Shown piece after piece: positions 1,456 through 42,110 of a stretch of 64,000 nucleotides of DNA; the first letter of the stretch is position 1; each line of letters begins with the position of its first letter. The notes under the pieces were generated by a model. The model did not search any database and was not told where the DNA came from. It worked only from the letters and a program-made list of their open reading frames with translations. This DNA comes from Welwitschia mirabilis (taxonomy: Eukaryota), in contig JBOZIK010000001.1 of assembly GCA_051453625.1 (NCBI GenBank), forward strand, positions 18,518,089 through 18,582,088. The letters run 5' to 3'. A program made the position numbers and the translations under genes.

Positions 1456-2689
1456 TGATCATAGCTTTATAGTGATGCAAATTTAAACTAAGTTTTTACT
1501 TAGTTATTGTTCTTCCATAGGGATATATATAGTAACTTGATCAAAAGATACAAGATTATTATACTTGCAATAAACACTCAAACAAAAGAAAAATTAGATG
1601 TTAAGATTAAAAGTGATCTTTAGTTAATGATGTAAGGGAGTAAAATTCTCCAAAGGTTTAATTGATTCATTCTTCACTCCACCTTCCTCGAATGATCCTT
1701 GTATCTTAAAACCTAATAATCAAGTAAGCTCCACATAAAAATTGCTAATGCCAAATGATTGTGCACTAATAATAAAAGAATAAAATACACTTATCCTATC
1801 TAAATATTGCTAATGCCAAATAAGTTACATAATAACAATGAAAGTGTTTAAACCAATTATTTATTAAAACCTGAAAGAAATATACATTATATTAATGGAG
1901 GAGGAGAAGAAGAAAAACTCGTTAACTAGCTTTGAATTATTCCTCCCATAAGAAAGAGTTTTAGAGCATCATGATGTCCTAGCCTTGAAGTCCTTCCCAC
2001 ATTAAGCCAACCAAAAGATGTTTGCAATGGGCATTCAAGGCCCTTTTATAGATGAGGGAAGGCTTAAGGAGTTATGTCATGATTGTGTTAGGTGGTGGTT
2101 ACATAAGGGGAGTTACTTAAGGGCATTTACATAAGGAGGGAGTTACAAATATGTTTGGCATGTAGCTGCAAAGAATTGCTTTGTTTTCAAGTACAAACAT
2201 GGAAATGACATGTCCTTTGACTATTGATGATGTTAGCAATGGATGCGGTGTCATGTAGCTTTATCTTAATCATCCTTATTATACCACATGTCACTATGAC
2301 ATGTCAATTTGTGCTTTTTTCCATGTGTCATCAAATTCAAAGATTTATTCTAAATTAATTCTAACTTAATCCATAATTACAATGTCATGATCTTTTCTAA
2401 TTATGGTAGGAATGTGAGACTAATGTAATTTATCCTCAATAGGCCAATGACGCAAATAGTCCTAGCTAGGAGCATTGACATTTAGTGCTAGATTATGATT
2501 AGTTTTTGCACAGTCCTTCATACGATAACAATTATCCTGTTCATGTTAAGGAAACTTAATATTTTCATGAAAAATTAATAAAAAGGGTACAAAACATTAA
2601 TATGTGATAAAACCATTAATTTAATATTTCTTCCTATGCTAAATTAATCCATTTTACTTGCTTAGAATGTCAATTCTGGCATGTAAATA
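1456..2689 (-). repeat. 5' LTR (~1.23 kb) of the non-autonomous Athila-derived element
   Basis: Minus strand starts tatttacatgccagaattgacattc (cf. tgtctacatgcaaaaattgaaattc at 59952), contains ccttccctcatctataaaagggccttga (TATA) and ends ...gatca next to the PBS. Confidence 0.75.
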
Positions 2690-5600: not shown

Positions 5601-8313
5601 AAGAAGTGTTCACAAATATATATGTAGTGTATTTATTCACCCTTTCGTGGAAAGATTATAGATGTTATCTTCTCTTTCTGCTATTAAGTTATTTTGAGAT
5701 ATATATCTATATATGTGCTTTATAGATTTATTAGTAATAATATATGAATTAAGTAATGAATTATTCAAATTCAACAGCTTGCATTTAAGGTCATAGCTTA
5801 TTTATTATTTACTGCAAAAATAACCTTAGTGTAGTCTTAGTATAGATGGTTAACTTGTTATTTAATGAGGGGTCAGAAGTTCAAGGCCAATGAGGTGTAC
5901 ATTTTATGCTTGAAATTCCTTACAAAAGAATTTATAACTTGAAACAAATAAGACTACTAACATGGGAAATTGAAAGGACTTTTAGTTAAAACCTCTCTCA
6001 AAATACATAGAATAGTGGTTAGCTTATTTTAATTGTTATATTTAAAGGTATCATCATATTCTTTAAAATATTATAACTAAGTGGTACTGGAATCGGAAAC
6101 TTAATAGGCATAGAACTAAATTTTTACCCTTCCACTCCTTGGAAAAGAACACAGAATGTTAATAACATGGTTCTCCCCCACCCTCCCATGTAATAAATTT
6201 CCCATGTGCTACTTCTATCTTTTCTTAACAATTATTAAAGGGTTTTTCCCTTCTTTTACCTTGAGCACCCTTAACTATGATCTTGGGTACTGCATCATTT
6301 TTTGTCAAATTAACAAGCCTTTAATCCATCATTATCATTTTCATTACCATAAATTTTATTACATATTTAATTTTCCACATCCTCTCTTTAGTGCCCATCC
6401 TCCATCTTAGCTATGCACAGTTGTCAGTCCCCTTCTCCACGTGGGTACCTGCCCTTTTCTTCATGCCGGTATTTCTCCCTATTACACCCTCCTTAGGACG
6501 AGATAGTAATTAGATCCTTTAACGTCTAAATATTATAAAACCATTTCCTGTTAGTACTTTAAAGATGTTGAAAGATGTTCACTGATCTATCCCTTAATAA
6601 CCTTCTACCCTTAGTGCCTACACATAAACTCATGGAAAAATTGGTCTGACTTAAAGAACAAAATGCCTTGGTGAATTCCCAGGTGACATTGTAGCTCATG
6701 TGGTCACAACGTTGAGGTTAAGATGGAAAATAGGAGGTCTAGTGTTGAGTTTGGGGAATCACTCTTATTAAATTACACAATTATAATTTTCATTATATCA
6801 TTAGTTATAAAGATCTTCTTTAATCAATTGTAAAATTGATATATTAGTGGCAGTAAAAGTTATTATAACCTTGTAAGATGTGGGAACCTTAAGGCATGCT
6901 TTCTATTAAAGTAAATATCTAAGTATCAGATAAATATTTTCCCTTTAATATGATCAACTAACAATCATATTCTAGAATCACAATAAGTGTATCAACCCTA
7001 GTTGGTGTGTTAATCCAAAATTTATTAGTAGTCCATTAAAAATTGCTATCACCTATTCTAGATACATTTTGGGCTTTTACATATTTAGTAAAATACATAT
7101 CTTAATTGGTAGTTAATTATATTATGATTTTTGGAAATTTTACATCAAAACTGTGATACACAACTAGAATTCTACGTAATGATGTTGCCGACTTAAGACA
7201 AACTTTAGATCTCTTGTAGTGTTGAATAATTAGAAGTGAACATTACATAGCTGCTCACTAGAAATGCAACACTAACTTTTTTATGTACAACATGGTTAAC
7301 TATATTGGAAGAAGTTACCGCAATAATTAATGCTTAATATGATCAAATGCTTGAAGGATGTCACTTATTATTGTAGAAGGGTAAAATCTAAAGGAAAATA
7401 AAAACTTAACGTGGATTGAGACTTTTTGTGAATTATTTGTTTTAACATTTATTACTTGAGTTTTCTTTACTACACTTTGTTTTCATGAATTTACTTTATC
7501 AATGCCTTGTTTTATTATGACTTAGTTTGATAATTAAATAAATTTTTTCTAGGCCATTACTTTAGTTTTCTAGTCTCTTTTATTCATAACATGCATGATA
7601 GAATGTTAATTGTATTTTCATTCACCTTATTTCCATTCATTTTGCTCTCTCATACCACATGCATTCACCCTTACATCACTACGAAAAAGCATACTAAAGG
7701 CACATTATTGTTTGTTGTGATGAAATCTCTTCTTCCATAAATCATGCTATCATCTTCATTTTCACCTTTTTCTTCATTTTTATCTTTGTTTCTTTTTAAC
7801 TTTTCATCTTTCATTTCTCAATATCCCTTTCATCTACAACAACCAATTATGGAAGCTTATCACTTAGCAATTTCTCATAGAAATTCCTTTTACTTCATGC
7901 ATCACTTTAGATTTTTTTTCCCATTGCACATTTTCTTTTTAACATTTTTCTTTCTTATGAATTATAGTATAGTTTACAATGCTTTCACTTTTCCCTTTTT
8001 CTCGTTTCAATAAAATGACATGTATGAAGCCTCTTTCTTCCAAATAATTGCATTAACTTATTCTTAAAATCTGTATTCATTTTCCTACATTTTTAAACTT
8101 TAAGGATAAAGTTCTATTTTTGTTGGGGGAAATGGCATTCACATTTTTAAAGAAAATTTTAATTTTAATGCCTAATTTTTTCCCCACAAATTGGCCAAGT
8201 GTTTCAAGTTTATCATTCTTATACTTAAATGTTTTCCTTAAAGATTTTTCCATGTTAGTTATTATTTATTGAACTTTTCACTAGGGTATTAGCAAAAGTT
8301 TGGTTGGGGGATG
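2690..8313 (+). mobile_element. 3' non-coding internal region of Athila-type element B, interrupted by an insertion at 3999-7247
   Basis: 3600-3998 and 7250-7400 align with the Athila 3' regions at 17640-18180, 23130-23680 and 58100-58680 (shared ttaattaggctaatgagc...cttatgtgcataaaa). Two PPT-like tracts occur at ~8120 (tttgttgggggaa) and ~8296-8313 (aagtttggttgggggatg). Confidence 0.65.
3999..7247. mobile_element. Probable long solo LTR (~3.2 kb, Tekay/Del-like termini) inserted in element B
   Basis: Homology to the Athila 3' region stops at 3998 and resumes at ~7250. Termini tatcatatcc...gaacattaca resemble decayed TGTCACAYCC...GGGCGTTACA. The TSD is imperfect (tagac / tagct). No coding signal inside. 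Confidence 0.45.
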
Positions 8314-9632
8314 TAATAACATGTAAAAATTTACATTTAAAAAAAGTATCTCAAGCTAATTTAGCATAAGTAAAGATGTTAAGTTAATTATTTTATTATG
8401 AAATAATGTCTTTCATTATTTTTCATGCCATATGTGAATTTATGTTTTTATCTTTAATGTTTTTAGTTTTTAGCCATTTTTTGAAACACACATCTAAAGA
8501 TGAATCCAACTAGGCATAAAACAATAACTGAGCTAAAAACATATTGTAATGATGCATGGCAGTGACATGATAAACATGTAGTAGTGACATGGTAATGAAA
8601 TGACAATGACATATAATAGTGGTATGTGGTGGTGGCATTTGACACACATGGTGATAACACAAATTGGAAGCATCTAGAACCAAGAGCACATGTTGAAAAT
8701 ATTATAATGATCCTTCACCTAAGACAACATGATGAAGATTCTACCAAATTCTACATGATGAAGCTTTCAACAAATTCTACATGATGAAGCTTTTACCAAA
8801 TTCTACATGACGAAGCTTTCATAAAGTATTACATGATAAAGATTCCACCTAATGCTATAGGACTAGGAATCTTAACCACTCCACCTAACACTACAAGATG
8901 AAATCTTATCTACCTCATCTACCATTATAAGTTAAAGGACTTTAATTACCCTAGTCCTAAATCCCTCTATAAAAAGGGTTAAGCCTTTTCATTGCATTAG
9001 TCTAATCCTTTAACAATGAAAGAAATCATTCTTTAAGGGAGAACTCTTCTATAATGTCTTTTTAGTTTTCATCCTTTGGGAATGGATTAGCCTTGAGGCT
9101 AGCATGATGCTTCTTTAAGCTAAGTCATTCTTCATTGATTAAATCTAGATCCATTTTTATAATAAAATAGTAGTTTACATTTCTTGATTTTATGTATGAT
9201 TCATTTCAAGCCTTTAATGCTTGATATGAAGCTATAATGTTATCAAGTTGTTTATGTTTTTGAGTGAATCCTTCTTGTTTATGTTTTTGTTTCATAGTTT
9301 GATTTCATTTAATGGTTCTTGGTAGAAAAATCCAACTTATCATGTTGATGAATAGGCTATAAAGGACTACAAGTGATCTAGAGATTTCACCACCACTCAT
9401 GTAATGAATGAGATTATATCACCATGATTTAAACCATAACAAACTTGGTGAAATTTGGATTTGAGATGGAGCTTGTACTATATCTTTGAATGAAATTCTT
9501 TTATTTGTTGAAATATTTTTTGTTAGTCTTAAATGCTATGTCCGTTTCAAGCCTCACTTCTTGAAATATCTTTTATTAGATTTTTACTTTGCACTTTTGC
9601 TTAAAACATTTACTATTTTGTCATAATATCTT
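8314..9632 (+). repeat. 3' LTR of Athila element B, left part (interrupted by element A)
   Basis: Follows the PPT and starts taataacatgtaaaaatttacattt like the other Athila LTRs. TATA ctataaaaagggttaagcc at ~8967. Confidence 0.7.
8727..8856 (+). repeat. Tandem array of five 26-bp units in LTR U3 (acatgatgaagMttYYaccaaattct)
   Basis: Unit starts at 8727, 8753, 8779, 8805 and 8831. Degenerate versions occur in the LTRs at ~9990-10150 and ~24730-24945. Confidence 0.85.
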
Positions 9633-10934
9633 TGTTAACATGTAAAAATTGACATTTATATCAAGTGTTTCAAGCCGATTTAGTATAAATAGAGACATCA
9701 ATTTAATTATTTTAATTGTAAAATATGTCTTCTATTATTTTTAAAATAAAACTTAATTTCATGATTTTCTTCATAATAATCGTAGATATTGAGGCACGTT
9801 TTAGAACAAATGGCAGGAGATGAACATAATTTCACATAAAACAATAGTGTTAATGGAGACATGAGGTAGTGACACATAGTAGTAGCATTGAAAGACATGT
9901 GGTAGAGGCATGTAGAGGTGGCATTTCAGACATGTGGTGAGCACTAGTTGGTAAAGAAATCCAACTCCAAAGGCTATATGTTGGACTCATTATGATGAAG
10001 ATTCCACCTAATGCTATATGACAATCTCTACCAAATGCTAGAAGATAACCTCCACTAAATGCTAAATGATCAAAATTCCACTTGATACTATAGGATGGAA
10101 TCTTATCTACTAAATGTTAAATGATGAAGATTCTACCTAATGCTATAAGCCAAAGGCTCTTAACCGCCTCAACCCTACCCTTGCTTATAAAAGGGACTTG
10201 AGCCTTTACTTATAATCATTCTTTGTTTTTAACAAAGTAGTAGAACTTTTGAAGTGTTAAGTCAACATGTCCTTCTAAGTACCTTCTTCAGAAGTGATCT
10301 TGTTTCAAGGCTAAACTGAAAAGTCCATACCAAGCCTTCTTTTTTCATTGATGTAATGTGTTTTTTTGGAATTAATACAAGTAGTTGTTTTCTTTTTATT
10401 TCAAGTGGCAAATATCTTTGTACTTGTAGTGCTTAAGTAACAACTACATTATCAAGTTATATTATTATCTGAGTGAGCTTCTTAGTTGGTTGATCTAATT
10501 ATTTTTGATTTGATGGATTTTAAGTACTTTGTGTCCCTACTTTCCATGATTATTTAAGGTCTGTGAAGGACCAAGTGGCTTTTAAATTCACTGATTCTCA
10601 TATGATAAATGAGATTATATCATCATGAGTTAAGCCACCACTACTTGAAAAATTAAGTATGTTTCAAAAATTCATAGAGTATATTTGGATAGAAGGAGGG
10701 CTGGAGGACAAATCAAATTAAACCTTAAAGCTAGTTCATTTTCCTACCTCTCTAATAAAGTTTCAACAACATTTTCTTAAACCCTTTATCGGTTTTCTCC
10801 TTTCTTCCATTATAATTAAAAGATAAGCAAAATATGTGTTATTTTTATTAAGTTCACCATAATTATCCTTATGGAATAATGATATTAGATCCTTACCTAG
10901 TTTATTTTAGTTTGATTGTACTATATCAAAAACA
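9633..10934 (+). repeat. 5' LTR of element A
   Basis: TGTTAACATGTAAAAATTGACATTT...aaaaACA; colinear with 24375-25660 throughout. Confidence 0.8.
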
Positions 10935-11006
10935 AAATTTTTATATCTCATTGGAACTTCATTGTTAATGACTTTTTCATAATATTCAAAAGTTAGTAGC
11001 TATAGT

Positions 11007-14000
11007 TGTTTAAATGCAAAAATTGACATCACAAACAAGTATAGTTGATCAATTTAGCATAGGTAAAGATACCTATTTTATCAATTTATTATAAAATAAT
11101 GTATTTTTTCCTTTTTTATTATGTTTTAGTAGAAATATGAACTTCCTTAACATTAGAATATTTGCTATTGCCTCTTAAAGAACTTGGCCGAATCTAAAGA
11201 AATTCTAGTGCTAAATGCTACCTAATGTAAGATGACAAAGACCCTACCTAACGCTACATGATATATTTTATAACTGCTCACCTAACGCCATAAGCGAAAG
11301 GCTTATAACCACACCCCACCCCATACTCAACTATAAAAGGGCCTTGAGCCTTCATTTGTAACATCCTTTATTTTTGCAAAGTAGTGGAATCCTTGGAGCA
11401 TCAAGTCAACATGGCCTTCTCAGTACTTTCTTTGGGAGCAAGCTTATTTATAAGATAGCTTGAGGAGTCCTTGTTACCTTTTTTATTCTATTTATNNNNN
11501 NNNNNNNNNNNNNNNNNNNNNNNNNNNNNNNNNNNNNNNNNNNNNNNNNNNNNNNNNNNNNNNNNNNNNNNNNNNNNNNNNNNNNNNNNNNNNNNNNNNN
11601 NNNNNNNNNNNNNNNNNNNNNNNNNNNNNNNNNNNNNNNNNNNNNNNNNNNNNNNNNNNNNNNNNNNNNNNNNNNNNNNNNNNNNNNNNNNNNNNNNNNN
11701 NNNNNNNNNNNNNNNNNNNNNATTGAGGATAATAGCATGGTAGCTTCTCAAGAGAAGCATAATTTTTATTTTCTTATAAGATTTTAGTTTAGTTTTTCGG
11801 TTTTAGATTTTTCAAGTAATTAATACTAGTCATCTCTAGTGATACCCAAACTAGTCTATTTTAGAGGTTTTTCTAGTTTTTCAGCTCTAACTAATTCTAT
11901 ATTGCATATTTAAGATTGGTGTTTCTAATAAAGTTTTTGAAGGTTATGATCAAGGGCAAAAAAGTAAAATTTAACTCACTCTCTATGTGTTTTCTTTTAC
12001 TTCCCATAATTTTAATTCAGTAGTTTATTAATTTTACTATTATAAAACACTAAAATATGAAAAAATATTTAGGATTTTATTTTCATAGGTTTTAATTTAA
12101 TTTTTCAGCTATTTCTATTTTCTATAAATTTTTCGGTTACCCCACTAATTGAAGTATTTTGTGCAAACTTTATGAACTTGTAATATTTTTTTGAAACATT
12201 ATCAAAATCTTGCATGCTATGGATTCAACACAAGTCAAGTAGATTAATTGGAAATTCATTTAATAACATGGACCTTAAAAATAAAGGAAATAAAGAATAA
12301 AGAATCCCACAGGAGAATCAGCCTAATGATGATACTCAAAGAGTATAAGCCTCTTCATCCAAATAACATAAACAAAACACTTAATTTAGTTTTCTAGATC
12401 AATATTTTAATGTACTAAGGTTAAACTAAGACCTCATAGACCAATTAAATGCCTACTACTTTAGTTAAGAAGTGGCTAGAATCCTTGGCCAGAACAAATC
12501 ACAAAACCAACTCAATAATGATACTCCTAAACAAACCCTTTGTGAGTATTTATAACCGTAATGTTTAGGAACATCCTCATGCATAGTCCAAATACCTAAA
12601 ACCCAAAGGTTAGAATTTAAGCCATCCACCATCTAGATATTATTCACTTTCATAGCTTGGAATCAAAAGACCTATACTTACATCTTAAAGAATTTGAGTA
12701 TGTGGTATTAACTATACCCTGATACCCAAATCCTTTGGACATTCTTAAGCTTATTCTTTTTCCATTTTACTTAAAAGAAAAGCCTAAATCATTACTTTAT
12801 ACTCTCAAGACCTTATCCATTAGATATTGGTATAATTTAAATAAGGCCTTCACATCCAAAATTTTCCCAAATCATAAGATGAATGCCTTAATAAGAGAAA
12901 TAATGAATTAAAAGGACCAAGGAACTTTTTCCCAAGCCTTAGAAAGATTTAAAGATTAACTGTAAAAGTGTTAACAACATGGATTTGAGCTAAGGAGTGA
13001 AATTAGCTTCTTTTATATTAAGTTATCTTCAAACAATAGGAAATTGATAGAGATGATAAGTAGGGGTAGTTTCCTTAGTATGCCATTAGATGAAGTTAGG
13101 AACTACCTCAAAACTATCAATGAGAGCTCTAAAACTAGAAGAAGCCAAGTAAACCATTTAGATCTCATCATCTTTTTAGGTCTACAAGTGTGTTCAAGAT
13201 AACTAATAATTTTGAAGTCAATAATAGAATGGATGAGTAAAAAGAGTACAATCATTATCCACTTTACCTTTACCTTTAGCCATAAAACCTAAATGTTCAA
13301 TTTGCCACAGTGATATCTATGAGATAACTGAGTATCTATTCATTCCCTTATTTTGGAACATAGTAAATGAATAAGTTAATATGGTAGGACACCAGTAGAA
13401 AAACAAAAAAAATGACCCATATTTCAAGACCTATAACCCTGGGTGAAGGAATTACTCTAATGTTTCTTAGAAGTAAGATAACTCATATAGTCATAATCAG
13501 AATAACCAGCCAATAATTCATTCTCTTTATCACTCTTCCATAACTTTCCATCAAACTATTAAAAACCCTCTTCATCATACATCCCCTTAGAGGAGTTATT
13601 AAGAAAATTCGTGGACATTCAAACCCAAATTAACTATGACCAAACCAACCATCAATATGAAAGAACTCTAAAGAGATATTCCTCTTTTATAAATAACCTT
13701 AAATAAGCTACTCAAATCAATACCTAATTACTTCAATAGATTTTGTTTTCCCTAAATCAAAGAGAACCAGGAGAACTCCTTATCAGTTCATAGTCAAATC
13801 CTAAAAGAGTTAGGCTTATAGAAGGATTAGATTCCACACACATCAAAAAAACTAAACCAATTCATCGTAGGAGTGGGAAAGAATTGAAAAATTAATCTAA
13901 GCCAAACACAACAAATGAAAAATCAGTTCCCATAGAAGAGAGGGGAAAAAAAACAAAATAATAGAGGAATCTTTACCCATCTATAAAGAGCCTTTGTGTT

Positions 14001-17000
14001 TTCCTTAATGGCTTTGGAAGGATAACATCATGAAAAAACAATTAGAGGCTTTAGAAATATTTAAAGAAGTTAAGATAAATATCCCTTCTTAAAAGCCATT
14101 AAGTAAGTTCCTTCTTACGCAAACTTCCTCAAAGACATGTGTATAATGGAAAGGTGCATGTATATAAAAAGTGAAGTCTTCTTAATACAACAAACAAGTG
14201 TAGTCATTTAAAACCAATTTCCACCCAGGTACAAATACCTTAGATGTACTACAATTGCAATTACCATAAAAAATAAGCAACTTAAGTAAGCCTTATTAGA
14301 TTTAGTACCTACTATAAAGTTGCTTACTTATGGAACCTAAAAAAAATTTAGGCTTAAGGCTTAAAAACATAAAACTCCAACTCTAAGTCTCTGATAATTC
14401 TATAAAAATGTCATTAGGGGTTATTAAGGATGTTATCATTAGGATAGATAGATATTATTTCCTAGTGGATTTTATGGTTTTAAACATATAAAACATAGTA
14501 AACTATTTAGTACCTGTCATCTTAGGAAGACCTTTCCTAACAACCTTAAATGCCATGATTAATTGTAGGAATAGTTTGATAAAAATATCCTTTGGAAACA
14601 TGATGATAGATTTAAATGATTTTAATGTCATGAAATTACTTTCTATTGATGATAAAATAGAAGATATGAATAGGTTAAAAATCCTGCTAGATAATCAAGA
14701 AACTTCCACTCACTTTCATAAGGACGATGCCTTAGAGTTTCCTTAAGTATCATACACTATCACTTAGGATTAAGCCCTCATTAAAATCAGGACTTTTCCA
14801 AATAATCTTAAATATAATTTCTTAAGGTATAATTCCACTTTCCTAATAGTGATCAATTCCTCTTTATCATCATCTAAAAAACTGAGTTACTAAATCTTTT
14901 GAGGAAACATAAATAGGTAATAGGATGAATCCTTTCTAACATTAATAGTATTGACCCTAGTATTTGAATGCATTATCTTTACTTAGAAGAAAATGCTAAG
15001 CCATCCATAGAAGCCTAATGAAGAATAAACCTAACCATGAAAGAGGTAGTGAAAAATGAAGTAATCAAACTCTCAAATAATGGAATAATATTTCATCTCA
15101 AATAGCAAGTGGGTAAGTCCAATCTAAATGGTAGTAAAAAAAATTTAGAATTAATCTAGTTTCAAATGAACATAATTAACTTATCCATACTAGATTCATA
15201 TTAAATGGAGAATGTGCATAGACTATTGAAAGTTAAATGCCATCTTAAGAAAGGATCATTTCCCACTTCCATTCTGATCAAATCCTTGAAAACATTTGGG
15301 ACTTTTTTTTACTACTTTCTAGATAGATATTCAATGTTAAACAAAATAGAATCCATCCTTGACTAAGATAAAACTATATTTACCTATCCATATGGAAGAT
15401 CTACCTATAGAAGAATGCCATTTGATTTGTGCAATGCTATTACCATGTTTCAATGTTGCATGCTTAGAAGTTTTTAGAATTTACTACACTCTCATGTTTT
15501 AATATTCATAGATGATTTTTTAGTTCATGGAGCCTATTTTGACCCTTAACTTAGAACTGTCCTTATGTGATACATAGAAAAACACCTTGTGCTTAATTGG
15601 AAAAACAAAGGCATAGTATTAAGACATATCTTCTCTTTAGAAGAAATTTAAGTAGACCCTACAAAAGTCTTATTAATCACCTACCCAACCACTCCTCAAA
15701 AACAAAGATATATTAGGTTTTTTTTAGGACATACAAGATATTACAGGAGATTTATTAAGGATTTTACTAAAATTTTCAAATCACTTTATGACCTCCTAAG
15801 CAAAGATGCCTTTTTTAACTAGACTCATGAGTGCTAACAATATTTCAAAGGAAAAAATTACATTTACCCTTATTGTTCAATCATCTAATTGAAAGTTATC
15901 ATTTGAAATTATATGTGATGCTAGAAATTATGTGGTTGAAGCTATGTTAGGACAAAGAATAAATAAAAAACCAGTCACAATCTATTATGCAAGTAAAACT
16001 CTGAGCGTCACTCAACTAAATTACATAATTATTGAAATAGAGCTCCTCACCATAGTCTTTGCCTTAGAAATAATTATTTAATACTCTATAGATTTTAAGA
16101 TAATTATTTACACAAATCACTCAACCCTTAGATACCTATTTGCTACAAAGGATTTAAATCTTAGATTAATCAAATGGATTCCATTTTTGTAGAAGTTTGA
16201 TTTAGAAATTAAGAATAACAAGAGCTTTGAAAATATCTCAGGAAAACTTGTAAATATCTCTTTCCATCAGTAATACCTCCTCTGATGAACACCTCTTCTT
16301 AGTTTTAAAAATATCTTGGTTTATCAATATTACCAAATACTTAGTTTCCAAGGTCATTTCCTCTCACTAGACCATTAATGATAAGAATAAAATTCTTAAA
16401 TTAGGCTAAATATTTCTTTTAAGATAGTTCTTATCTATTTAAGTATTACCTAGATCAAGTCATCTATAGATGTATCCCTCAATCTAAAATTCATGACATT
16501 ATTAGGCATTGTCATCTAAGGCTTATGATGGCCATTATTCTAATAATAAAATTGTCATGAAAATTCTTCAATCTAATTTTTATTTGTCATCTATTTTTAA
16601 AGATTCCTACCTCTATTGCAAAACTTGTGAAAATTGCCAAAAACTTGATAGCCTATTATGGAAACATATGATGCCTTTAAACCCCATTTGCATCGTACAA
16701 TCCTTTGATGTTTGGGGAATTGACTTTCAAGGCCCATATCGCTCTTCAAATGGATACCATTACATTCTTTTTTATATTGATTGTGTTATTAAATAGGTGG
16801 AAGCATGCAGTTGTCAATCTAACAATGCCCAAAAAGTGATGACCTTTAAGAAAAACATCTTAATGAGATTTGTGGATTCTTAAGTTTTAATTAGTGATGG
16901 AGGAACTTACTTTTGCAATAGAATATTTAATAATCTTCTCACTAAGTATGGGGTCACTCATAAAGTTGTAACATCATACCATCCCTAAAGTAGCAGTCAA

Positions 17001-31700: not shown

Positions 31701-33245
31701 CACTCTACTAGAATCTTAAGAGAGGTCATCATATAGACAACATAAATAAAGAATCTTACTTGAAAAGATTAATGATTACTTAATAGATAAAGATTGATAA
31801 AGTTTAAAGCTCAAAACTCCTTAGCTCTGAGATTGCAAGCTTATAGCACCAAGTTCCTAAGCTCTAAGATTCAAAGCCTTAAGTTAGCAAGCTCCAAACT
31901 CCATAGGCAAGAGAATGAAAAGTGTGAAATAAGGAAATGCACTCCCATGAAAAATAGGAAATATCCTTGTTTGTAAGAAAGGGTCTCTACTTAAAGATGA
32001 ACAATAGATAAAAGGCATATAGTTTAAGATCATAGGATTACATAATTTATTATTAATAAGTGGGATGAGTAATAAGTCAGATTAAAGTATGAAAAAGGAC
32101 ATTATATTTATAACTCATGTGCCTAACTAGGATGAGTAATTTTCTTGCTTTAATTAGCAAGGTTAATTACATGCATTATTTCTTTATTCTAGCTCTTTCT
32201 TAATCCTTCATAGGCTCATAAGCATGTTTAATCACTTCAAGACATTTATTAAAAGAATAAATGCACAAATTTTAAAGTTATCATGTGACATAATGATATA
32301 AGACTTTTTAAATCAAATGAATAAAATAATTAATGTATCATAAATATCAATTCAAGACATGCATTGAAATAATACGTGTACAAATTTAGAAGTTATCATG
32401 TAACATAATAAGATAAGCCTCTTTAAATTCAATGAATAAAACAATCAATATGTTATGGATAAAGTGCCATTACACATCTTAAGAATATAAAGATAATGAT
32501 TGAGTAAATCTACTCATTTATCCTTCTTGGATCTAGGTAAGTGTTCATGTACTTGTTTACATGTTCATTTATTTCATGATACATAGAATCCATCATTCAT
32601 ACAACACAAAGAAGAAGATGTCTGTTCATAATTAAGCATAATATAGCTATCACATTTACGAATAAATTCACATGAGTAAATAAGATATCATTTAATATTT
32701 TTGTAAGACATATTATTATACCCTCTTGAATTTTTTAATTTAGTAGTTTTACCTTTTATCTTAAAGTCCTTACATAATGGGATTATTTATTTTTAATATA
32801 TGAATTTCTATTATCATAAAAATGTTCATAATATAATTATTATTATTTTTATGTTGAATTATGAAAAATTAAGAAAACTATGATTAATTACTTAAAATAC
32901 CATCTTATTTCAATAAGGCCTTTAAAAAGGGATAATTAGAAGGAGAATTCATAATCTAATTAAAAGATTGGTTGATTTACAAAGTTTTTCAATGTTGAAT
33001 AGGGTTTCTTCTGGAAACCACTTGGGGGAGAAGACTTTGGTGGAGCTCTGAAGATCGCAGATTTGGAGAAGGAGGGTGCAGGTTTTCAAGATCGCAATTC
33101 GGTGGGGGTGGTTCCGGTTCCTGATCACAGTGCAGGGGGCATTTTCGGCCACAAGATAGGCAGTAGTCAGGTAAGTTTCGGGAGTCTTTTTGTCTTGTAG
33201 TTTTGATCAGTTTTTTAGGATTTTCTATTGGGGTTTGGCCCTAAG

Positions 33246-34335
33246 ATGGAGAAGACTCAGTTCTCCAGGGAGGGAAAATCTCTCGTATTAGACATAGATG
33301 GAGATGCATGTAGTGAAATCAAGAAAAAACTTAAGTTTAGCCTCATTGGCAAGTTTGTATCTTCCAACCCTTGATCTCAATTAGATTAGGTCCATGATTG
33401 GGTCACAATGAAATGGACATGGATTAGCAAAGTCACTGTTATAGCAATGCTAGAAGATCTGGTTTTATTTCAGCTAGATAATGAATAAGATCAAGATGAA
33501 ATCATAGCAATAGGACTGTGATTTTTTGGAGTTAGAGGCCTAGCCCTAACCAAATGGACACCGGGGTTGCAATCGGACCCATAACTATTCAAGAAACTTT
33601 TGATCTAGATCCACATCCATAAGTTTCACTCGAAGTTTTGGGATGAAGATCTGTTACAAAGAATGGTCGGTCAGTTTAAAGATCTAATCAAGCTGAATGG
33701 CATCATGATTAAACAAACTAGATTAGTGTTAGTCATATTCTATGTGTGGATGAGTTTTGAAGATACCAATGAAATTTAATTCATAAAGTTTAGATTCAAA
33801 TGGGAAACCTATGACCTAGAAGTTACATATGAGAATCTTTTGATCCCGTGCTCATTTTGTGGGAAATCAAGATACCTCTCAGGAAGATGTACTTCTCTTG
33901 AGAAGGAATGCTCACACTATGGAAGATTGGATTACTTATGAGAAGAATGTCAAAAGAGATTAATAAACATTGAAGGAAAGAAAAAGGAAACTTACACCTT
34001 TTGTGAAAAGACTGGGCATAATTAGAGTGCATGCAGACACAATCAGCAGAAGGAATAAACCAGAAAAGGCACCACTATTTTTTCAAAGAAAAGCAAGAGA
34101 AAGAAAGATTCAAAATAGGAAAACCCATTTCAACTGCTCATGGATGAGAATGACACCCAACTAAACCTTCAATATGATGAATCTAATGAAGTGGAAAATC
34201 AGACAAAGGGAAGGCATAGCAACAGAACCTTACGAAAGTGAGAGACAACAAAGAATGTTGCAAATAGTTTCCAAGATACAATTGAAAACATATTAAAAAA
34301 GGACAAGAACCCAAAAAAGGGTGAAAAAACCCTCA
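33246..34335 (+). pseudogene. LINE ORF1 (DUF4283/RRM-like domain plus two CCHC zinc knuckles), disrupted
   Basis: MEKTQFSREGKSLVLDID...FSLIGKF...GL*FFGVRGLALTKWTPG...I*IHIHKFHSKFWDEDLL, then VTYENLLIPCSFCGKSRYLSGRC and TFCEKTGHN*SAC. Confidence 0.88.
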
Positions 34336-37300
34336 ATGAATTGTCTCTCATGGAACTGTAGGGGATTAGGATCCTCCTACAAAAACAAGACCCTACAAAA
34401 TATGATTAGTCAATATAATATCGATTTTTTCTGCCTTCAAGAGATGAAGATAAAATAAGATATGGAAAACATAAAGATGGAGAGGCACTGAATCTCTTTT
34501 AGCATACTAGCCCAGGATAAATCTGGTGGTCTTTTGATTTCTACTAAAAAAGATGCAGATCTAATTTGCAGTAGTCAAAATCACATTATAATTTTTCTTA
34601 AAAATGAAGGATGGACTATTACAAATATATACAGTCCCCAAAACAATTATACAAGGTTGTGAATTTAGAAGAATCCCAGAAGAATTTATTAGAAAAATCC
34701 AAATGGATCATTTTAGGTAACTTTAATCAATGCCTCCATCACTGGGAAAAATCTGGTGGGGATAATTGAAACTCTAAAGTGGCCTCTATCCTCAAAGATT
34801 TCTTGGTAAGATATTCTTTCATATATATACCCATCACTGGTTGCNNNNNNNNNNNNNNNNNNNNNNNNNNNNNNNNNNNNNNNNNNNNNNNNNNNNNNNN
34901 NNNNNNNNNNNNNNNNNNNNNNNNNNNNNNNNNNNNNNNNNNNNNNNNNNNNNNNNNNNNNNNNNNNNNNNNNNNNNNNNNNNNNNNNNNNNNNNNNNNN
35001 NNNNNNNNNNNNNNNNNNNNNNNNNNNNNNNNNNNNNNNNNNNNNNNNNNNNNNNNNNNNNNNNNNNNNNNNNNNNNNNNNNNNNNNNNNNNNNNNNNNN
35101 NNNNNNNNNNNNNNNNNNNNNNNNNNCCTTCAAGAGATGAAGCTAAACTAAGATATGGAAAACCTGAATATGGGAAGGCACTGGACCTCTTTTAGCGTAT
35201 TAGACCAGGGTAAATTTGGTTGTCTTTTGGTTTCTACTAAAAAGGATGCAGATCTAATTTGCAGCAGTCAGAATCACATTACAATTTTCCTTAAGAAGGA
35301 AGGATGGACCATTATAAATATATACAGTCCCCAATACAACCTAGACAAGGCTGTGTNNNNNNNNNNNNNNNNNNNNNNNNNNNNNNNNNNNNNNNNNNNN
35401 NNNNNNNNNNNNNNNNNNNNNNNNNNNNNNNNNNNNNNNNNNNNNNNNNNNNNNNNNNNNNNNNNNNNNNNNNNNNNNNNNNNNNNNNNNNNNNNNNNNN
35501 NNNNNNNNNNNNNNNNNNNNNNNNNNNNNNNNNNNNNNNNNNNNNNNNNNNNNNNNNNNNNNNNNNNNNNNNNNNNNNNNNNNNNNNNNNNNNNNNNNNN
35601 NNNNNNNNNNNNNNNNNNNNNNNNNNNNNNNNNNNNNNNNNNNNNNNNNNNNNNNNNNNNNNNNNNNNNNNNNNNNNNNNNNNNNNNNNNNNNNNNNNNN
35701 NNNNNNNNNNNNNNNNNNNNNNNNNNNNNNNNNNNNNNNNNNNNNNNNNNNNNNNNNNNNNNNNNNNNNNNNNNNNNNNNNNNNNNNNNNNNNNNNNNNN
35801 NNNNNNNNNNNNNNNNNNNNNNNNNNNNNNNNNNNNNNNNNNNNNNNNNNNNNNNNNNNNNNNNNNNNNNNNNNNNNNNNNNNNNNNNNNNNNNNNNNNN
35901 NNNNNNNNNNNNNNNNNNNNNNNNNNNNNNNNNNNNNNNNNNNNNNNNNNNNNNNNNNNNNNNNNNNNNNNNNNNNNNNNNNNNNNNNNNNNNNNNNNNN
36001 NNNNNNNNNNNNNNNNNNNNNNNNNNNNNNNNNNNNNNNNNNNNNNNNNNNNNNNNNNNNNNNNNNNNNNNNNNNNNNNNNNNNNNNNNNNNNNNNNNNN
36101 NNNNNNNNNNNNNNNNNNNNNNNNNNNNNNNNNNNNNNNNNNNNNNNNNNNNNNNNNNNNNNNNNNNNNNNNNNNNNNNNNNNNNNNNNNNNNNNNNNNN
36201 NNNNNNNNNNNNNNNNNNNNNNNNNNNNNNNNNNNNNNNNNNNNNNNNNNNNNNNNNNNNNNNNNNNNNNNNNNNNNNNNNNNNNNNNNNNNNNNNNNNN
36301 NNNNNNGAAATTAAGGAGGACCTCAAATTCATTAAAACTGAACAGGAGAAGGGAGGTAATCAGGACAGCCTTAGAAACAGAGAATACCAGTGCCTAATGG
36401 AGCTCCAAGAAATACATGAGGATAAAGAAAATTATTGGAGAGAACGATCAAGGATCAAATGGCTTAAAGAAAGTGATAGACATACTAGGTTTTTCTTCCA
36501 GCAAACTAACTAATATAAATCAGATAACAGAATTAAGAGGCTTACAGTAGGAGGACGAGTCATAAAAAAAGAAGAAGAAATAGCAAAGGAACTGCAAACA
36601 CATTTGCAGAAAGTCTGGGAATGGGATAATATCGGCCCCGGCTTAATTCTAGAGAACAAGAAGGTTTTAGAGGAGGATAACCAAATGCTAAGTAAACCCT
36701 TAAGTAGAGAGGAGGTCCTAGCTGTAGTCAGATCGATGAAGAATAACCAAGCGCCTGGGCCAGATAGATGACTAGTCGAGCTCTTCAAAACTTATTTTTC
36801 TATCCTAGGGAATAACCTCCATAATATAATGCAGGAAATTTTCTATAAATGATGGATTCCTAGAGAGATAAATCGAACCAGAGTAGTTCTCATTCTGAAA
36901 AAAAGAGATGTCAGTAGACTAGAGGACTTTAGACCCTTAGGGGTTTGCAATGTTATTTACAGAATCTTCACAAAAATTATGGTTAGCCGAATCATCCCCT
37001 TGCTCCCCAATGTGATTTCAGAGAACCAAGCTAGCTTCATTCGTTCCAGGTATATTCAAGACCAGATCGTTTTAACTCATGAAATTATTCACTCTATTAA
37101 AAAGCACAAATTTTCACTTCTTATTAATAAACTAGATATTGCAAAAGCTTATGACTTAGTTAGTTGGTAAGATATAGGGTGCATTCTTAGAAAAATTGGC
37201 TTTTCTCAAGATATTATTAACCTATGGCTAGACACGCAAGCTTCAGCTGAATTTAGTGTGGAGGTCAGCAGTCACAGATCAAACTTCTTCTTAGTAGGGA

Positions 37301-38573
37301 GAGGCTTGAGAAAAGGGGATCCTCTATCCCCATGCCTCTTCTTATTTGTTATGAATGTTTTATAGGTTTTCTTAAAAAACAACGGAGTTACAGGAATTAA
37401 TATTGGAGGTCAAATTTTTCTCAATAATCACTATGTAGACGATACTATTTTCATGACCAAGGTGACCATTCAACAAGCAAAAGATCTAAAAAATGCCATG
37501 AATACATTTGCAAAGGCAATAGGGATTCACACCAATTATAACAAATCAAGAATACATACCTTGGGTAGACCATGTACCAGAGGGGGTGAAATCACTTGCA
37601 TTATGAATCCAAAGTTAGGAGACCTGCAGGACATCTACCTGGGCATTCCTTTATGGAATTGACATAGGATAAATACTTGAAACTACATTCTGGAATCTAT
37701 ACAAAGAAGGTGTAGCTCTTAGCACAATAATTTTCTGTCTTCAAAGGCTAATATCATTCTTACAAATTCCTGTCTAATTTCATTATTTTAGTATATAGCT
37801 TTTGTTATCGCCCCCCAAAGAATATCATTCAAAAAATTGACAGGATCTTAAAAGATATTATATGGTCGGGGGAAAAAGACCACCACAGGATACATCTATG
37901 TAAATGGGAAATCATAGCCCATCCTAAAGAATCAGAAGGATGGGGAATACAGAAACTTGAAGATTGTATCCTCACAGGAGCTCAAAATATTTTAAAGAGA
38001 TTACAAGAGGGAGGACAACCTTGGAGTGACTTAATGAATGACAAGTACAGAAACTGGATAATTAAACATGAAGTGTCTTATCTTTGGAAGCACCTCTGCA
38101 AAGCTAACCAACAACTTTTTGATTTAAACATCACTTAGAATAAAACATCCAAATAGATCTTGATCAATAAATATGACAAATAGGAAGGCTATAAGAAGCA
38201 TTAGAGTGGCCNNNNNNNNNNNNNNNNNNNNNNNNNNNNNNNGCTGAAAGAGCACAACTGAATTTTGACAAGAGATCAATTATCAAAAAGGGGAATTCAA
38301 GTTGATATCAAATGCCTCATATGTCAGTCCACTATAGAAATAATTCAGCATCTCTTTCATCAATGTGCCTAGAGCAAGAAGTTAATGGCATTAATGACTA
38401 AGTACTATCAAAGTAGCAGTGCCTCTAACATGCATTCAGTCGACAGGATTTGCCTGACTGTGTGGTAGATATGGCAAATCAGAAATCGTTTAATTTTCAA
38501 TAACGTCCCCCTTCCCTTCCCTATTTATACAGCTAGAAAGATAATCCACAATTACTCTCAAATTAAACTTGCC
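34336..38573 (+). pseudogene. LINE ORF2 (APE endonuclease, reverse transcriptase, zf-RVT), disrupted and gapped
   Basis: MNCLSWNCRGLG (34336), FCLQE, GNFN, YWRERSRIKWLKESDRHTRFF, QAPGPDR, DFRPLGVCNVIYRIFTKI, KLDIAKAYD, GLRKGDPLSP, YVDDT, YLGIPL, KCLICQSTIEIIQHLFHQC and W*IWQIRNRLIFN. Confidence 0.95.
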
Positions 38574-39802
38574 ATGGAAGCCACTCTAACATATGAGCCT
38601 ACTGACTTAAGCCTCTCTGAAGTATGCCCAGAGCTGTGGGAGAAAATATAGGTAGTGGGGTGGGAAACCCTTCTGCATAAACTAAGAGGGGATATGGGGG
38701 CCGATATCGCCCTGTTTTACAGGCGATGGAGAGGAGAAGAACAAGTTTTAGAAGAATCTTGATAGAAATTTCAGAAGAATCTTTTGTCAGATTGTTGGAG
38801 GTTCCAGCGGAAGGCGAGAGGATCCTATTCGGAAGCAAAGGCCAATAAGAAGCCCTTAATTTCTTTCTAGGTGGAATCCTAAAGCTGCCCAATGGGATAG
38901 CAATAGGAAGGCGTTACCGCCTCTGTGGGGACTCAGGGTAGAACTAGTGGACAGATATTTCATTAAATCTGGTAATTGTTCTAAGCTTTCTGGAATTCAT
39001 TTTGTGTTTCTTAAGGCTCTTGAATTAGGACGTCAAGTGAAACTTCCCTACTTCTTCATTTAAGTCCTCAAGCGAAAGGATTCCTCTAGGCACTCAAGCC
39101 TAATTCTTACTCTTTGGAGAGCAGCTCAAGAAGCTCGGGCCAGAGAGACCCCTCCCCATCCTTCCCCTCACCGTCCTCGCCAAACCACTCCTACAAGAAA
39201 TTCTTTCTGAAGTTCCTCCTCAGCTCAAAACCCTATCCCAGAAGAAACAGAATCTCCTTTCAGCCCTAGTAGTAGGGGGCATCTTTGTCCCCAGCTCACT
39301 TAATAGGTCCGTCTTCACCCCTGGCCCAACAGAATTCTCTCAAGGAGAATCCTCCCTCTCAAGCTTAGTCTCCACATCTTTCTTCCCTAGCTTCAAGCCC
39401 TTCCTCACCAGCTAACCCTGCTCAGGAATCCCAACACTCCTCCCCCTCTAGCTTCAGACCCTAGTATCCCCCAAAGCTCTACCTTTGACTCCTTTTCTTT
39501 GGAACCTCAACCCCAAACTCAGGATATTGACATAAATATAGCTAGGAGAGAGGTTTTTCTGCCAACTTTGCATGGACTGAAAAGATTCCCATATGTCACC
39601 TCTCTCTCATCAAGCTCTTCCCTAGGCAATAAAATCGACTTACAGGAAGAAAGCTCTATGCCTTCATCCAGATAAGAACCTGGCTAGTGCTAAAGAATTC
39701 AAGGAAATCAATAAAGATTTTGAGGTGCTCTTAGATGACTTAGGCAGATTCTTACTTAAGCATAACCATCATAACATGTTCCCTTATTACAAAGGTCTGT
39801 AG
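38574..39802 (+). pseudogene. LINE extra coding region (ORF2 extension or ORF3): transposon accessory-like domain, Pro/Ser-rich linker, C-terminal J-domain; disrupted
   Basis: ATG in GCCATGG context, in frame with ORF2. Translation across frameshifts: MEATLTYEPTDLSLSEVCPELWEKI*VVGWETLLHKLRG...IEISEESFVRLLEVPAEGERILF...LPPLWGLRVELVDRYFIKSG...HFVFLKALELGRQVKLPYFFI...RHSSLILTLW; then a P/S-rich stretch; then the J-domain; stop TAG at 39800-39802. Confidence 0.75.
39586..39760 (+). pseudogene. DnaJ/Hsp40-type J-domain coding segment (HPD motif at 39665-39673)
   Basis: FPYVT/[frameshift]LSHQALP*AIKSTYRKKALCLHPDKNLASAKEFKEINKDFEVLLDDLGRF matches the J-domain consensus PY.vLgl...as..eIKkAYRklAl..HPDKN....a.e.FkeI..AYevLsD...R. 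Confidence 0.88.
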
Positions 39803-40850
39803 AGGACTAGTATCCTCTTTCTTTTAGGCTTTTACCTGGTATTCCGAGTTCTTTATAAGTTCTAGTTTTCTAGGGGTAGTTTCGCCCCTAGTTTTCAGTA
39901 GTTTTTAGTCCTTTTGTATGATTGTTTCCTTTAGTACTTGTGTCCTCTTACGTAACTGATTGTTGTGTCATTTTTTAAGGGGCGGTTTTACCCTCCTTTT
40001 TGGTTTGCTGTTCTTGCTGCTATGAACAGTCTATGCTTCTGTAATGATCGGGTGGCGAGTTTACCCTAGATGTACATTTCCTAGTCTAATACACATACTT
40101 TAAAAAAAAAATTCTAATTAAAGGATTAACATTCCTAATATCCAAGTAATTAAGGTTTAAAAAATATGAAGTATAACACCTAAAAATCCCCATGATAGAT
40201 ACAAAGACTAATAATAAATTAAAAGTTGAAGATTAAGTAGATTTAGAAGCTATTATCAATATTTTAACTTATGTAACTAATGAGGAAATTAGATAAATTA
40301 AAATTAATACCTTATTAAGGGAACTTTTTTTTAGTAGATGGGTTAATAGCAATACTTAAAGGACTATTAAAAGATATATGTATTAAAATTTAGGGTTTTA
40401 TTTACTTAATTGATTTACTGTTAATGAAAACTTAAGGAGATGTACATATAGTTTTCTTAGGAAGGCCATGGATGGCTACTAATGATGCCATCATTTACTC
40501 CAGGAGACATGGAATGGAAATTAGCTTGTAAGAACTTAAATAGAAAATTAAATTATCTAATGCAACTATCATAGAAGAAATAGGATACAATACTAAAGGT
40601 AGGACAAATGCCATCCTAACTTAAGAAGTACATATAATATTAAAATAATAAAATGAAGTAAAACATAAGGAAAAATTTTAACATATCAAGAAATAGTAAA
40701 ACCTCCATTTAAAGAAGGGTTAGAATATATAAAAGTATATCCTAACAAACATTTAACTATAAACAGTAATCTAACTCATTCTTAGAAAAGCAAGCTTAAA
40801 ATAATGTTGGAGGAAAAGAATCCTTTACTTCAAATCATACTAACATAAAA

Positions 40851-40868
40851 GAGAGAGAGAGAGAGAGA
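40851..40868 (+). repeat. (GA)9 microsatellite inside the decayed pol of element D
   Basis: Visible GA run. Confidence 0.9.
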
Positions 40869-40963
40869 GGGATTCCAACATTTACCAATATAAAATTTAC
40901 TTAAATACTTTAATTCAATTAAATAGAAAACTTGAGGTAAGGTGTAATTCTTACTGCAAGAAG

Positions 40964-42110
40964 TATCATCAGAAGATTGATGGATCTTTACAAAACATCT
41001 CTGATTTTGAAGATGTCTCTATTATGGAAGAGGTTTATACAAAATTCAATCTCTTGATAGAAGATGTATTTGATCTTAAAGATGTCTACCTTATGATATG
41101 AATTAATTGTCAATAGACATCTCTAGTGATGAAGATGTCTATTCTAAAATTTTAATTGTCTAATAGTAGATGTCTCTGGTAATGAAGATGTCTATCTTAA
41201 AAGGATGACCTATCCTATAGTAGGTGCCTATGAGTTTGGAAGATGTCTCTAAGTTGTGAAAGATATCTACTTCAATAAATATATCTATGACGTAAAAGAT
41301 GTCTATCTTATGACTACTGTAAGACTACTTTTAAACCACATGAAATTAGTATTTATGTGTTATAATTCTTGATCCAAAAATTTAACAATGATGTTATCCA
41401 CCTAGAAAAATGTAAGATTATATTTCAAACAAGATTTTTCATTATTCTTCTAGATACATCTTTAAGAAATTTTGTTCTTGATCTAACAAATGCTTGTAAT
41501 TAAGATTTTCATGAAATAAGGGATCTTTATTCTTTCTTTTAGAAGAATAGTCTAAAAACCTTTAAATAAGAGAAAATATCATTTGCATGTAATATGCAGC
41601 CTAAAATATTCAAGATTCAACCTTATATTTACTAATTCTTTAACCTTTCCATTTAAAATTTAGTTATTCTTATTCCTAATTTAATGACTTATTTTCAAAT
41701 ATGAGAAAACACAAAATAAAAGACATTAGTAATTCTCTTCATTCTTCTATGTAAACACATATGTGAGTGAACTCAAGTAGGATTTAAGCATTACTAAAGG
41801 GAAAAAAAAAAAAAAACTCAATCATTAAGAAAAAAATCATGCAAAAGTTATGAAAACACTTCTCTAGCATTTCATTCATCTCTTCAAGAGGTATTAAGCA
41901 TATGTTTCTACATCAATAGTTTACTCATAAAGAAGAGTTTGAAATCATTCTTTCTTCTCTAACATGGGATATAATCCCTTACAAGAGAGACTAACATTGC
42001 TTTCTAACATAAATTCTTATAATCTCATAACTCTCTAAACAACAACATTAAAACATAATTACAAAATAAAGTATATGATGTTTTCACATTGAATCACATT
42101 TGCATCAACA
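40964..42110 (-). repeat. 3' LTR (~1.15 kb) of Ty1/Copia copy 1
   Basis: Minus strand starts TGTTGATGC at 42110 right after the PPT remnant (caagggat). Colinear with 53012-54084 plus 61389-61439. Confidence 0.8.

Follow-up and report, generated by a model that had tools for sequence, protein, structure and literature searches.

The window analysed here is a stretch of 64,000 nucleotides of Welwitschia mirabilis DNA (contig JBOZIK010000001.1 of assembly GCA_051453625.1, positions 18,518,089 to 18,582,088), read on the + strand; unless assigned to another sequence, all coordinates are those of this window. At 32965-40112 it contains a long interspersed nuclear element (LINE). The second open reading frame (ORF2) of this element is followed by three further parts, which we collectively call the extension: a domain of approximately 180-190 amino acids that belongs to no curated family, a linker, and a J domain (Table 1).

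Both composition and flanking sequence set the LINE apart. The window is 29.2% G+C and has 14 runs of N, the Welwitschia genome as a whole is reported at approximately 29% G+C (PMC8275611), and the LINE is 38.3% G+C. It is flanked by an exact 10-base target-site duplication. By a rough estimate, about 0.2 such matches are expected by chance, if the 10-mer match is considered alone. We also matched reads and contigs from two DNA runs (X1 and X2) and two RNA runs (X14 and X17) to positions 36307-41000 at a likeness of at least 80%. Loose ends were found before 40113, where 89 contigs in X1 and 86 in X2 depart from the window sequence. In a by-eye comparison, their consensus resembles the window at 32913-32954, i.e., the left flank. 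This is the pattern expected of copies of the flanking repeat that have no insertion (empty sites), and it therefore supports the duplication. Given the A10 run, the duplication and these loose ends, the LINE is bounded at 32965-40112, and the extension domain, linker and J domain all lie inside it. The element has an A-rich 3' end and a target-site duplication and has no long terminal repeats (LTRs), as is typical of plant L1 elements. The flanking repeat itself (32913-32964 and 40113-40178) is short and very high-copy, with a word depth of approximately 10,000 in the bin 40075-40231. We found no second copy of the element in the window at either the DNA or the protein level.

The coding regions upstream of the extension are those of a plant LINE. 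ORF1 matches DUF4283 (PF14111; E 5.4e-9; 36.3 bits, cut-off 27.2; approximately 33381-33725), which has been described as the main marker of plant LINE ORF1 (PMC5203782). Pfam matches in ORF2 comprise RVT_1 at 36898-37560 (E 3.5e-26) and zf-RVT at 38253-38381 (E 7.9e-8, in the frame of 36309), both of which are over their cut-offs, and Exo_endo_phos at 34345-34464 (E 5.6e-5), a partial match beside an N run whose 23.4 bits are just below the cut-off of 24.5. With this set of ORF1 and ORF2 domains, the element is a decayed plant L1-type LINE, and the copy in the window is dead. It contains 1,263 N bases, and the start of its apurinic endonuclease (APE) region occurs twice, at 34434-34661 and 35127-35355, with 86.9% identity. 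These two stretches flank an N run (34845-35126): either the element was duplicated internally, or two paralogous LINE copies were joined in the scaffold. The assembly is not clean in this region.

Downstream of the zf-RVT match, the sequence reads TGG TAG at 38463-38468, followed by an open frame of 60 amino acids (38469-38651) that begins IWQIRNRLIFNNVPLPFPIYTARKIIHNYSQIKLAMEATLTYEP... and is in the same frame as zf-RVT. A first-pass annotation, made from the sequence alone, had proposed that the ORF2 frame runs on into an extra region, and had pointed to an ATG at 38574 with a strong context. Both points hold: the frame is open up to and past this ATG, which lies in the context gccATGg. The same annotation read the frame onward from W*IWQIRNRLIFN with no stop and referred to the peptide of 38574-39130 as frameshift-corrected. 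In the window the reading is broken after 38651, with in-frame stops at 38649 (TAG), 38846 (TAA) and 39060 (TAA), and with frame changes near 38736-38740 and 38876-38901. Nevertheless, the composite assembled from three frames is a real coding remnant, because it has only 3 stops in 224 codons, compared with a background of 0.082 stops per codon in the window, and because two other sequences that are discussed below (the transcriptome protein P0008 and the contig L001) read the same blocks without frame changes. We rejected chance open frames on the same stop count. The off-frames of the extension blocks have 2-9 stops per block.

By its place after zf-RVT, the extension sits where other plant L1s carry RNase H. 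However, no RNase H or RVT_3 family was matched at E<=10 in the three forward frames of the window downstream of zf-RVT, in agreement with the earlier remark that no RNase H motif is visible there, and Pfam matched no RNase H family in the forward frames of L001 downstream of its zf-RVT. Given the lack of any match to these profiles, we rejected the possibility that the extension is an RNase H remnant.

The J domain at the end of the extension matches PF00226 (DnaJ) at 39605-39739 with E 1.6e-8 and 35 bits (cut-off 27.8). The match covers only positions 9-56 of the 63 in the profile, and helix I is broken, while the His-Pro-Asp (HPD) motif is intact (LCLHPDKN). The best PDB sequence matches for this stretch are all J domains, e.g., 2och_A (E 2.9e-6). 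Most of the DNA-read depth has C at 39713 and at 39717, which gives INQAFEVL, and this reading of most copies looks closer to a typical J domain than that of the window copy. A His-rich stretch, LKHNHHNMF (39755-39781), follows the J domain. A comparable stretch, LYHCHEHRKIF, follows the J domain of L001 at approximately 7755-7790, and the two may represent a small conserved tail motif. The linker that precedes the J domain is 49% G+C.

Table 1. Features of the LINE in the window, with summed word depth and the corresponding parts of contig L001 as located by tblastx
Feature	Window	Strand	Basis or remark	Summed word depth	L001	Identity to L001
Left target-site duplication copy, TCTAATTAAA	32955..32964	+	exact 10-mer match to 40113-40122			
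5' untranslated region (UTR), approximate	32965..33245	+	between left duplication copy and ORF1 ATG 33246			
ORF1, DUF4283 and Cys/His knuckles; decayed, end approximate	33246..34050	+	Pfam PF14111		655-1199	37-39%
ORF2 core (APE, reverse transcriptase (RT), zf-RVT); decayed, with N runs and internal duplication	34324..38468	+	Pfam	3,200-16,000 (RT 7,000-16,000)		
APE					2283-2504	
RT					2910-4357	30-49%; ~38-39% over two long blocks
zf-RVT					5030-5104	
TAG stop directly preceding IWQIRN; CAG in other copies	38466..38468	+	T>C at 38466			
ORF2 tail, IWQIRNRLIFN...QIKLA	38469..38573	+	open, zf-RVT frame; aligns with IWKEQNNRIF... of L001			
Extension domain				1,650-6,100	5657-5866	45.7% over 70 aa
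Extension domain, N block; begins at Met in gccATGg, MEATLTYEP	38574..38735	+	frame of 38463			
Extension domain, middle block, ISEESFVRLLEVPAEGERI; TAA at 38846	38741..38875	+	frame of 38465			
Extension domain, C block, VELVDRYFI...RHSSLILTL; TAA at 39060	38902..39117	+	frame of 38464			
Linker, Pro/Ser-rich, low-complexity; frames broken	39118..39604	+	translations; no Pfam match	590-940 (39133-39446)		
J domain, HPD at 39665-39673, short His-rich tail, stop TAG 39800-39802	39605..39802	+	PF00226	5,800-6,000		
3' UTR and A10 tail (A10 = 40102-40111)	39803..40112	+	read depth falls beyond element			
Right target-site duplication copy, TCTAATTAAA	40113..40122	+	within short high-copy repeat			
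Beyond the element	40232 up to 40702			under 300		

Evidence that the extension belongs to the LINE comes from a distant relative. We used the C block (38860-39147) as the query in an exhaustive phmmer search of 1.84 billion proteins, which gave five proteins at E<=0.001. One was retained, namely P0004 (86 amino acids, 48% identity, E 6.9e-6), a singleton encoded on the metagenome contig L001 (13,874 bases, 33.8% G+C). The scores of the other four were summed over repeats, and we rejected them as spurious; there were 5 matching stretches in P0001, 7 in P0002 (cystatin repeats), 3 in P0003 and 6 in P0005 (TPR repeats). Word-index protein searches with pieces of the window, of near and longer lengths, gave no match, nor did a PDB sequence search with the extension domain, and single-protein scans of the genome contig and viral contig collections found no relative.

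L001 is collinear with the window LINE: ORF1 with DUF4283 is followed by APE, RT and zf-RVT, after which come the extension domain, here too in frame with ORF2, and a J domain behind a long linker. A single frame, that of 5102, extends from zf-RVT past IWKEQNNRIF and QYEP as far as the domain's end at 5944; it is interrupted by 4 in-frame stops but by no frameshift. At the first of these stops, P0006, which is another record of this stretch of L001, has Q. The domain is followed by approximately 1.6 kb of Lys/Glu-rich sequence and then by a DnaJ match (E 1.9e-7, 31.5 bits, approximately 7555-7749). The ORF ends at 7866, and an A9 run lies further on, at 8008-8017. Where HPDK is expected, the J domain of L001 reads YLDK plus a stop, and every change needed is C>T, which would be consistent with decay of the HPD motif through C>T changes. 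We found no target-site duplication for L001. Separately, positions 3-119 of L001 (minus strand) hold a reversed APE fragment of another LINE (tblastx E 6.5e-4 to window 34336-34452).

In an alignment of the window with L001 (A3), identity is 30% for the ORF2 tail together with the N block, 49% for the middle block (spanning 35 amino acids) and 45% for the C block. By this measure, conservation of the extension domain equals that of RT, with 45-49% identity in two of its blocks. The linkers differ greatly, at approximately 160 Pro/Ser-rich amino acids in the window (39133-39446 compared) versus approximately 530 Lys/Glu-rich amino acids in L001 (5944-7555); on this comparison the linker is fast-evolving, while the domains on either side of it are kept. 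The layout of domain, linker and J domain that the first-pass annotation had suggested is found downstream of ORF2 in the window, inside the duplication, and with the same architecture in L001. Because domain order and frame are the same in two LINEs whose RT sequences are only about 38% identical, the extension is, as judged from these alignments, an old and integral part of the LINE lineage, rather than a chance neighbour.

Other copies are numerous. A profile search with A3 gave four proteins at E<=1 among 1,790 candidates, of which three are ORFs of L001 itself. The fourth, P0008 (91 amino acids, E 2.6e-7, hhalign probability 98.2), is a Trinity ORF from a transcriptome whose accession names Welwitschia mirabilis. 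It is 69% identical to the window over its first 54 amino acids and 74% over its last 35. P0008 reads the N and middle blocks in one frame, with no break at the first frame change of the window, and Q stands at the position of the window's TAG 38649. P0008 starts at the Met that corresponds to ATG 38574 and ends at the window's TAA 38846. This TAA, which follows ...SKGQ, is a premature stop common to at least two copies.

In the DNA runs, 27,518 contigs (X1) and 26,839 contigs (X2) matched 36307-41000, most of them less than 95% alike. Diverged contigs overlap across the junction of ORF2 and the extension domain, namely an X2 record at 38324-38576 and an X1 record at 38489-38857, and further contigs chain on to 39439, all among the 16 pieces listed of approximately 54,600. 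Among the best supported of approximately 4,400 pile-ups of loose ends in the DNA runs, none lies between 38243 and 38637.

Our preferred explanation, to which we assign a probability of roughly 0.7, is that the window holds a dead, duplication-flanked copy of a plant L1 element from a lineage in which ORF2 carries an ancestral C-terminal extension of domain, linker and J domain, most likely as part of the polyprotein, and that this extension would recruit Hsp70. The anatomy and boundaries of the element, the conservation across two very distant LINEs, the high copy number and some transcription are supported directly by the observations above. For the remainder, we infer translation as one protein, recruitment of Hsp70 and a benefit to the element. 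Active ancestors would have made a single protein, in which the ORF2 protein (ORF2p) and the extension domain were followed by a disordered linker and, at the end, by the J domain. If this J domain acts as J domains generally do, its HPD loop would dock host Hsp70 and trigger ATP hydrolysis, such that Hsp70 would be loaded in cis onto ORF2p or onto the LINE ribonucleoprotein. Once loaded, Hsp70 could help to fold, assemble or remodel the complex in the course of retrotransposition.

It is important to consider several points that weigh against this explanation. An uninterrupted frame from ORF2 to the J domain is seen nowhere, since each of the three sequences, i.e., the window, L001 and P0008, is either interrupted or incomplete. 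L001 could come from the same plant, so that the two LINEs may represent a single host. There are few RNA reads (X14, 244; X17, 80); they come from both strands and are mostly less than 90% alike. Word depth falls from RT to the extension, so that many LINE copies may lack the extension, or else the extension may evolve faster. The stop after ...GQ that P0008 has in common with the window may mean that at least one subfamily has a truncated domain. Since only about one quarter of the depth has C at 38466, in most copies matched at that position a TAG may separate the ORF2 core from the extension. The N runs and the internal duplication across a gap slightly weaken the reading of the element as a single insertion. 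Finally, the extension domain matches no Pfam family and no PDB sequence, and both predicted structures are poor: the model of the L001 domain, from 4 aligned rows, has a predicted local distance difference test (pLDDT) score of 31.8, and that of P0008, from 3 rows, has 52.0.

The first-pass annotation had also proposed that the domain is related to Transposase_32 (PF20167), ATHILA ORF-1 (PF03078) or the plant mobile domain (PF10536). Such a relationship to the first two, which are proteins of Ty3-type LTR elements, would imply domain exchange between retrotransposon orders, and it is compatible with our preferred explanation of the architecture. We compared the domain with hidden Markov models (HMMs) of all three families and found no match to any of them. 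More broadly, Pfam at E<=10 gave no family for the extension in three frames of the window, for the one-frame domain of L001, for P0008, for P0007 or for the L001 ORF, and a scan of L001 at E<=1 likewise gave none. The exhaustive phmmer search also returned no Transposase_32 or ATHILA ORF-1 protein.

What speaks for kinship is a language-model neighbour search, in which approximately 170 shared features are typical of true members and scores below 0.9 are leads only. For the C block, PF20167 clusters account for 9 of 30 neighbours; the best of them scores 0.90 and shares 153 features, and the recognition value of 2260 is under the usual level. The non-overlapping N and middle blocks, represented by P0008, have as their 30 top neighbours only unnamed clusters (0.93-0.94, 188-189 shared features), few of which have a recorded taxon, mostly Streptophyta. 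Among named clusters, those nearest to P0008 are PF20167 (0.89; 49% of members carry it) and PF03078 (0.88, 141 shared features), and 7 of its 10 best family-bearing neighbours share a family or clan. The plant mobile domain was not among the neighbours shown. PF20167 has been reported in the 3' extra ORF of Athila and as related to PF03078 (PMC11728184). However, all named neighbours of P0008 score below 0.9, and shared features for these families, at 141-156, are below the 170 of true members. The kinship that was proposed therefore stands as a lead from the language model, and we regard membership in, or close relation to, the Transposase_32 and ATHILA ORF-1 proteins as possible but less probable than not.

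A more far-reaching combination of these ideas can be formulated, in which an old L1 lineage has its own Hsp70 co-chaperone, with the J domain tethered to RT through a distant cousin of the Athila and Transposase_32 proteins, and possibly with control by a leaky UAG or an internal Met. This would make it both the first J domain in a retrotransposon and the first accessory domain shared by LINEs and LTR elements. We consider this full combination doubtful.

A different question is whether the extension was fused to ORF2p at all. It might instead have been a separate, ORF3-like product, made by internal initiation or reinitiation at Met 38574 or by leaky read-through of the UAG at 38466. The Met at the first position of the extension domain is aligned in the window (38574-38576), P0008 and L001 (5327-5329), and the gccATGg context would favour initiation there. 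Moreover, P0008 was called as an ORF starting at exactly this Met, although the Trinity ORF caller always starts at Met. The first-pass annotation had asked whether a stop separates ORF2 from ATG 38574 in other copies, and the answer is divided. L001 has a TAG (5210-5212) one codon away from the window's TAG 38466-38468, in both cases just before an IW..N..IF motif, and approximately three quarters of the DNA word depth at 38466 is not C. On the other hand, 39 contigs in X1 and 36 in X2, or about one quarter of the word depth, have the T>C change that gives CAG, as do all 12 RNA reads covering the position, and the P0006 record of L001 has Q.

The TAG at the same place in both LINEs is thus either parallel C>T decay of CAG or a leaky stop. 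C>T is the commonest decay in our change counts, and CAG is a CHG site, such that parallel TAGs would be expected; by a rough estimate, two copies so riddled with stops would have at least one near-coincident stop about 1 time in 3. There is no other stop between zf-RVT and the Met, and the extension is in the ORF2 frame in both LINEs. On account of this common frame, the Q variants and the CHG site amid C>T decay, we consider a separate product improbable, and it is most likely, from the frames preserved in these copies, that the extension was made as part of the ORF2 polyprotein.

The extension could also have served another purpose. The first-pass annotation saw in the layout a candidate anti-silencing factor. 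On this view, chromatin or nucleic acid would be the target of the extension domain, and silencing complexes of the host would be dismantled by Hsp70 acting through the J domain. Plant J-domain proteins have been linked to a chromatin remodeller (preprint 10.64898/2026.09.14.751395), and the element family is very abundant. However, Pfam matched no DNA- or chromatin-binding family in the extension (window frames, L001, P0008 and P0007), and a J domain is equally suited to chaperoning the element's own large protein in cis. We view an anti-silencing or chromatin-targeting role as distinctly unlikely.

Lastly, the domain, linker and J domain might not be LINE parts at all, but an adjacent transposon, a pseudogene of the host or a single 3' transduction that chances to abut ORF2; this possibility is close to refuted. 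The drop of depth in the linker, the difference in depth between extension and RT and the lack of another copy of the unit in the window would fit it. However, the unit is enclosed by the duplication, with the ORF2 core on one side and the A10 tail on the other, recurs in the same order and frame in L001, is joined to ORF2 by the diverged contigs overlapping across 38324-38857, and has at its junction none of the best supported pile-ups of loose ends.

We next consider how the preferred reading, an ancestral C-terminal extension of ORF2 with a J domain, compares with previously described systems. Our literature searches found no publication that describes a non-LTR retrotransposon with a J domain, and 'DnaJ' occurs 0 times in the available main texts of PMC5203782 and PMC7264820, although the supplementary tables of PMC5203782 could list rare ORF2 domains. 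In contrast, gain of a C-terminal domain by LINE ORF2 is already known, from plant RNase H and insect helicase, and it is the layout with a J domain that we have not found described and that these sequences suggest. Foreign domains set behind long spacers are reported to be tolerated at the C-terminus of LINE ORF2 (PMC4686597). The genome, of the gymnosperm type, is extremely GC-poor and rich in repeats; the family is very abundant in it, and an accessory unit of this kind may bear on how such genomes fill with retroelements. If the domain proves to be kin to Athila or Transposase_32 proteins, these widespread uncharacterised proteins would gain a second, independent context in which to infer their function.

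The closest parallel is with those plant L1s that have an Archaea-like RNase H at the C-terminus of ORF2 (Smyshlyaev et al. 2013, as cited in PMC4686597 and PMC5203782). These elements likewise have a DUF4283-type ORF1, an ORF2 with APE, RT and zf-RVT, and a foreign domain in frame after zf-RVT. In the window LINE no RNase H was matched, and what follows zf-RVT instead is a domain of approximately 180-190 amino acids and, behind a long linker, a J domain. Insect R1 LINEs with a C-terminal, tobamovirus-like superfamily 1 (SF1) helicase (PMC4686597) also carry an additional domain at the very end of ORF2, behind a spacer longer than 300 amino acids without known similarity, compared with linkers of approximately 160-530 amino acids here. 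However, R1 belongs to another LINE clade and another host kingdom, and its added domain is a helicase rather than a J domain. The extra ORFs of Athila that carry PF20167 or PF03078 (PMC11728184) resemble the extension domain in that they are accessory proteins of plant retroelements whose function is unknown, and they are its nearest named language-model neighbours. They differ in being separate ORFs of LTR elements, whereas the domain in the window is in frame with a LINE ORF2 and reaches neither HMM.

With regard to chaperones, Hsp70-family proteins associate with human LINE-1 particles, as complexes of human ORF2p pull down HSPA8 and HSPA1A (PMC5821459). However, human LINE-1 recruits these chaperones without a J domain of its own. 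The human L1 data hint that target-primed reverse transcription depends on chaperones, and a LINE with its own Hsp70 recruiter would make this dependence directly testable. Some DNA viruses carry J domains, e.g., in polyomavirus T antigens, and a LINE Hsp70 recruiter, if true, would parallel them. As in J-domain co-chaperones and the viral proteins, the J domain of the window LINE matches PF00226 and has the HPD motif, and here too a mobile or parasitic genome would bring its own Hsp70 recruiter; the difference is that, in this LINE, the J domain would be at the C-terminus of a reverse-transcriptase polyprotein.

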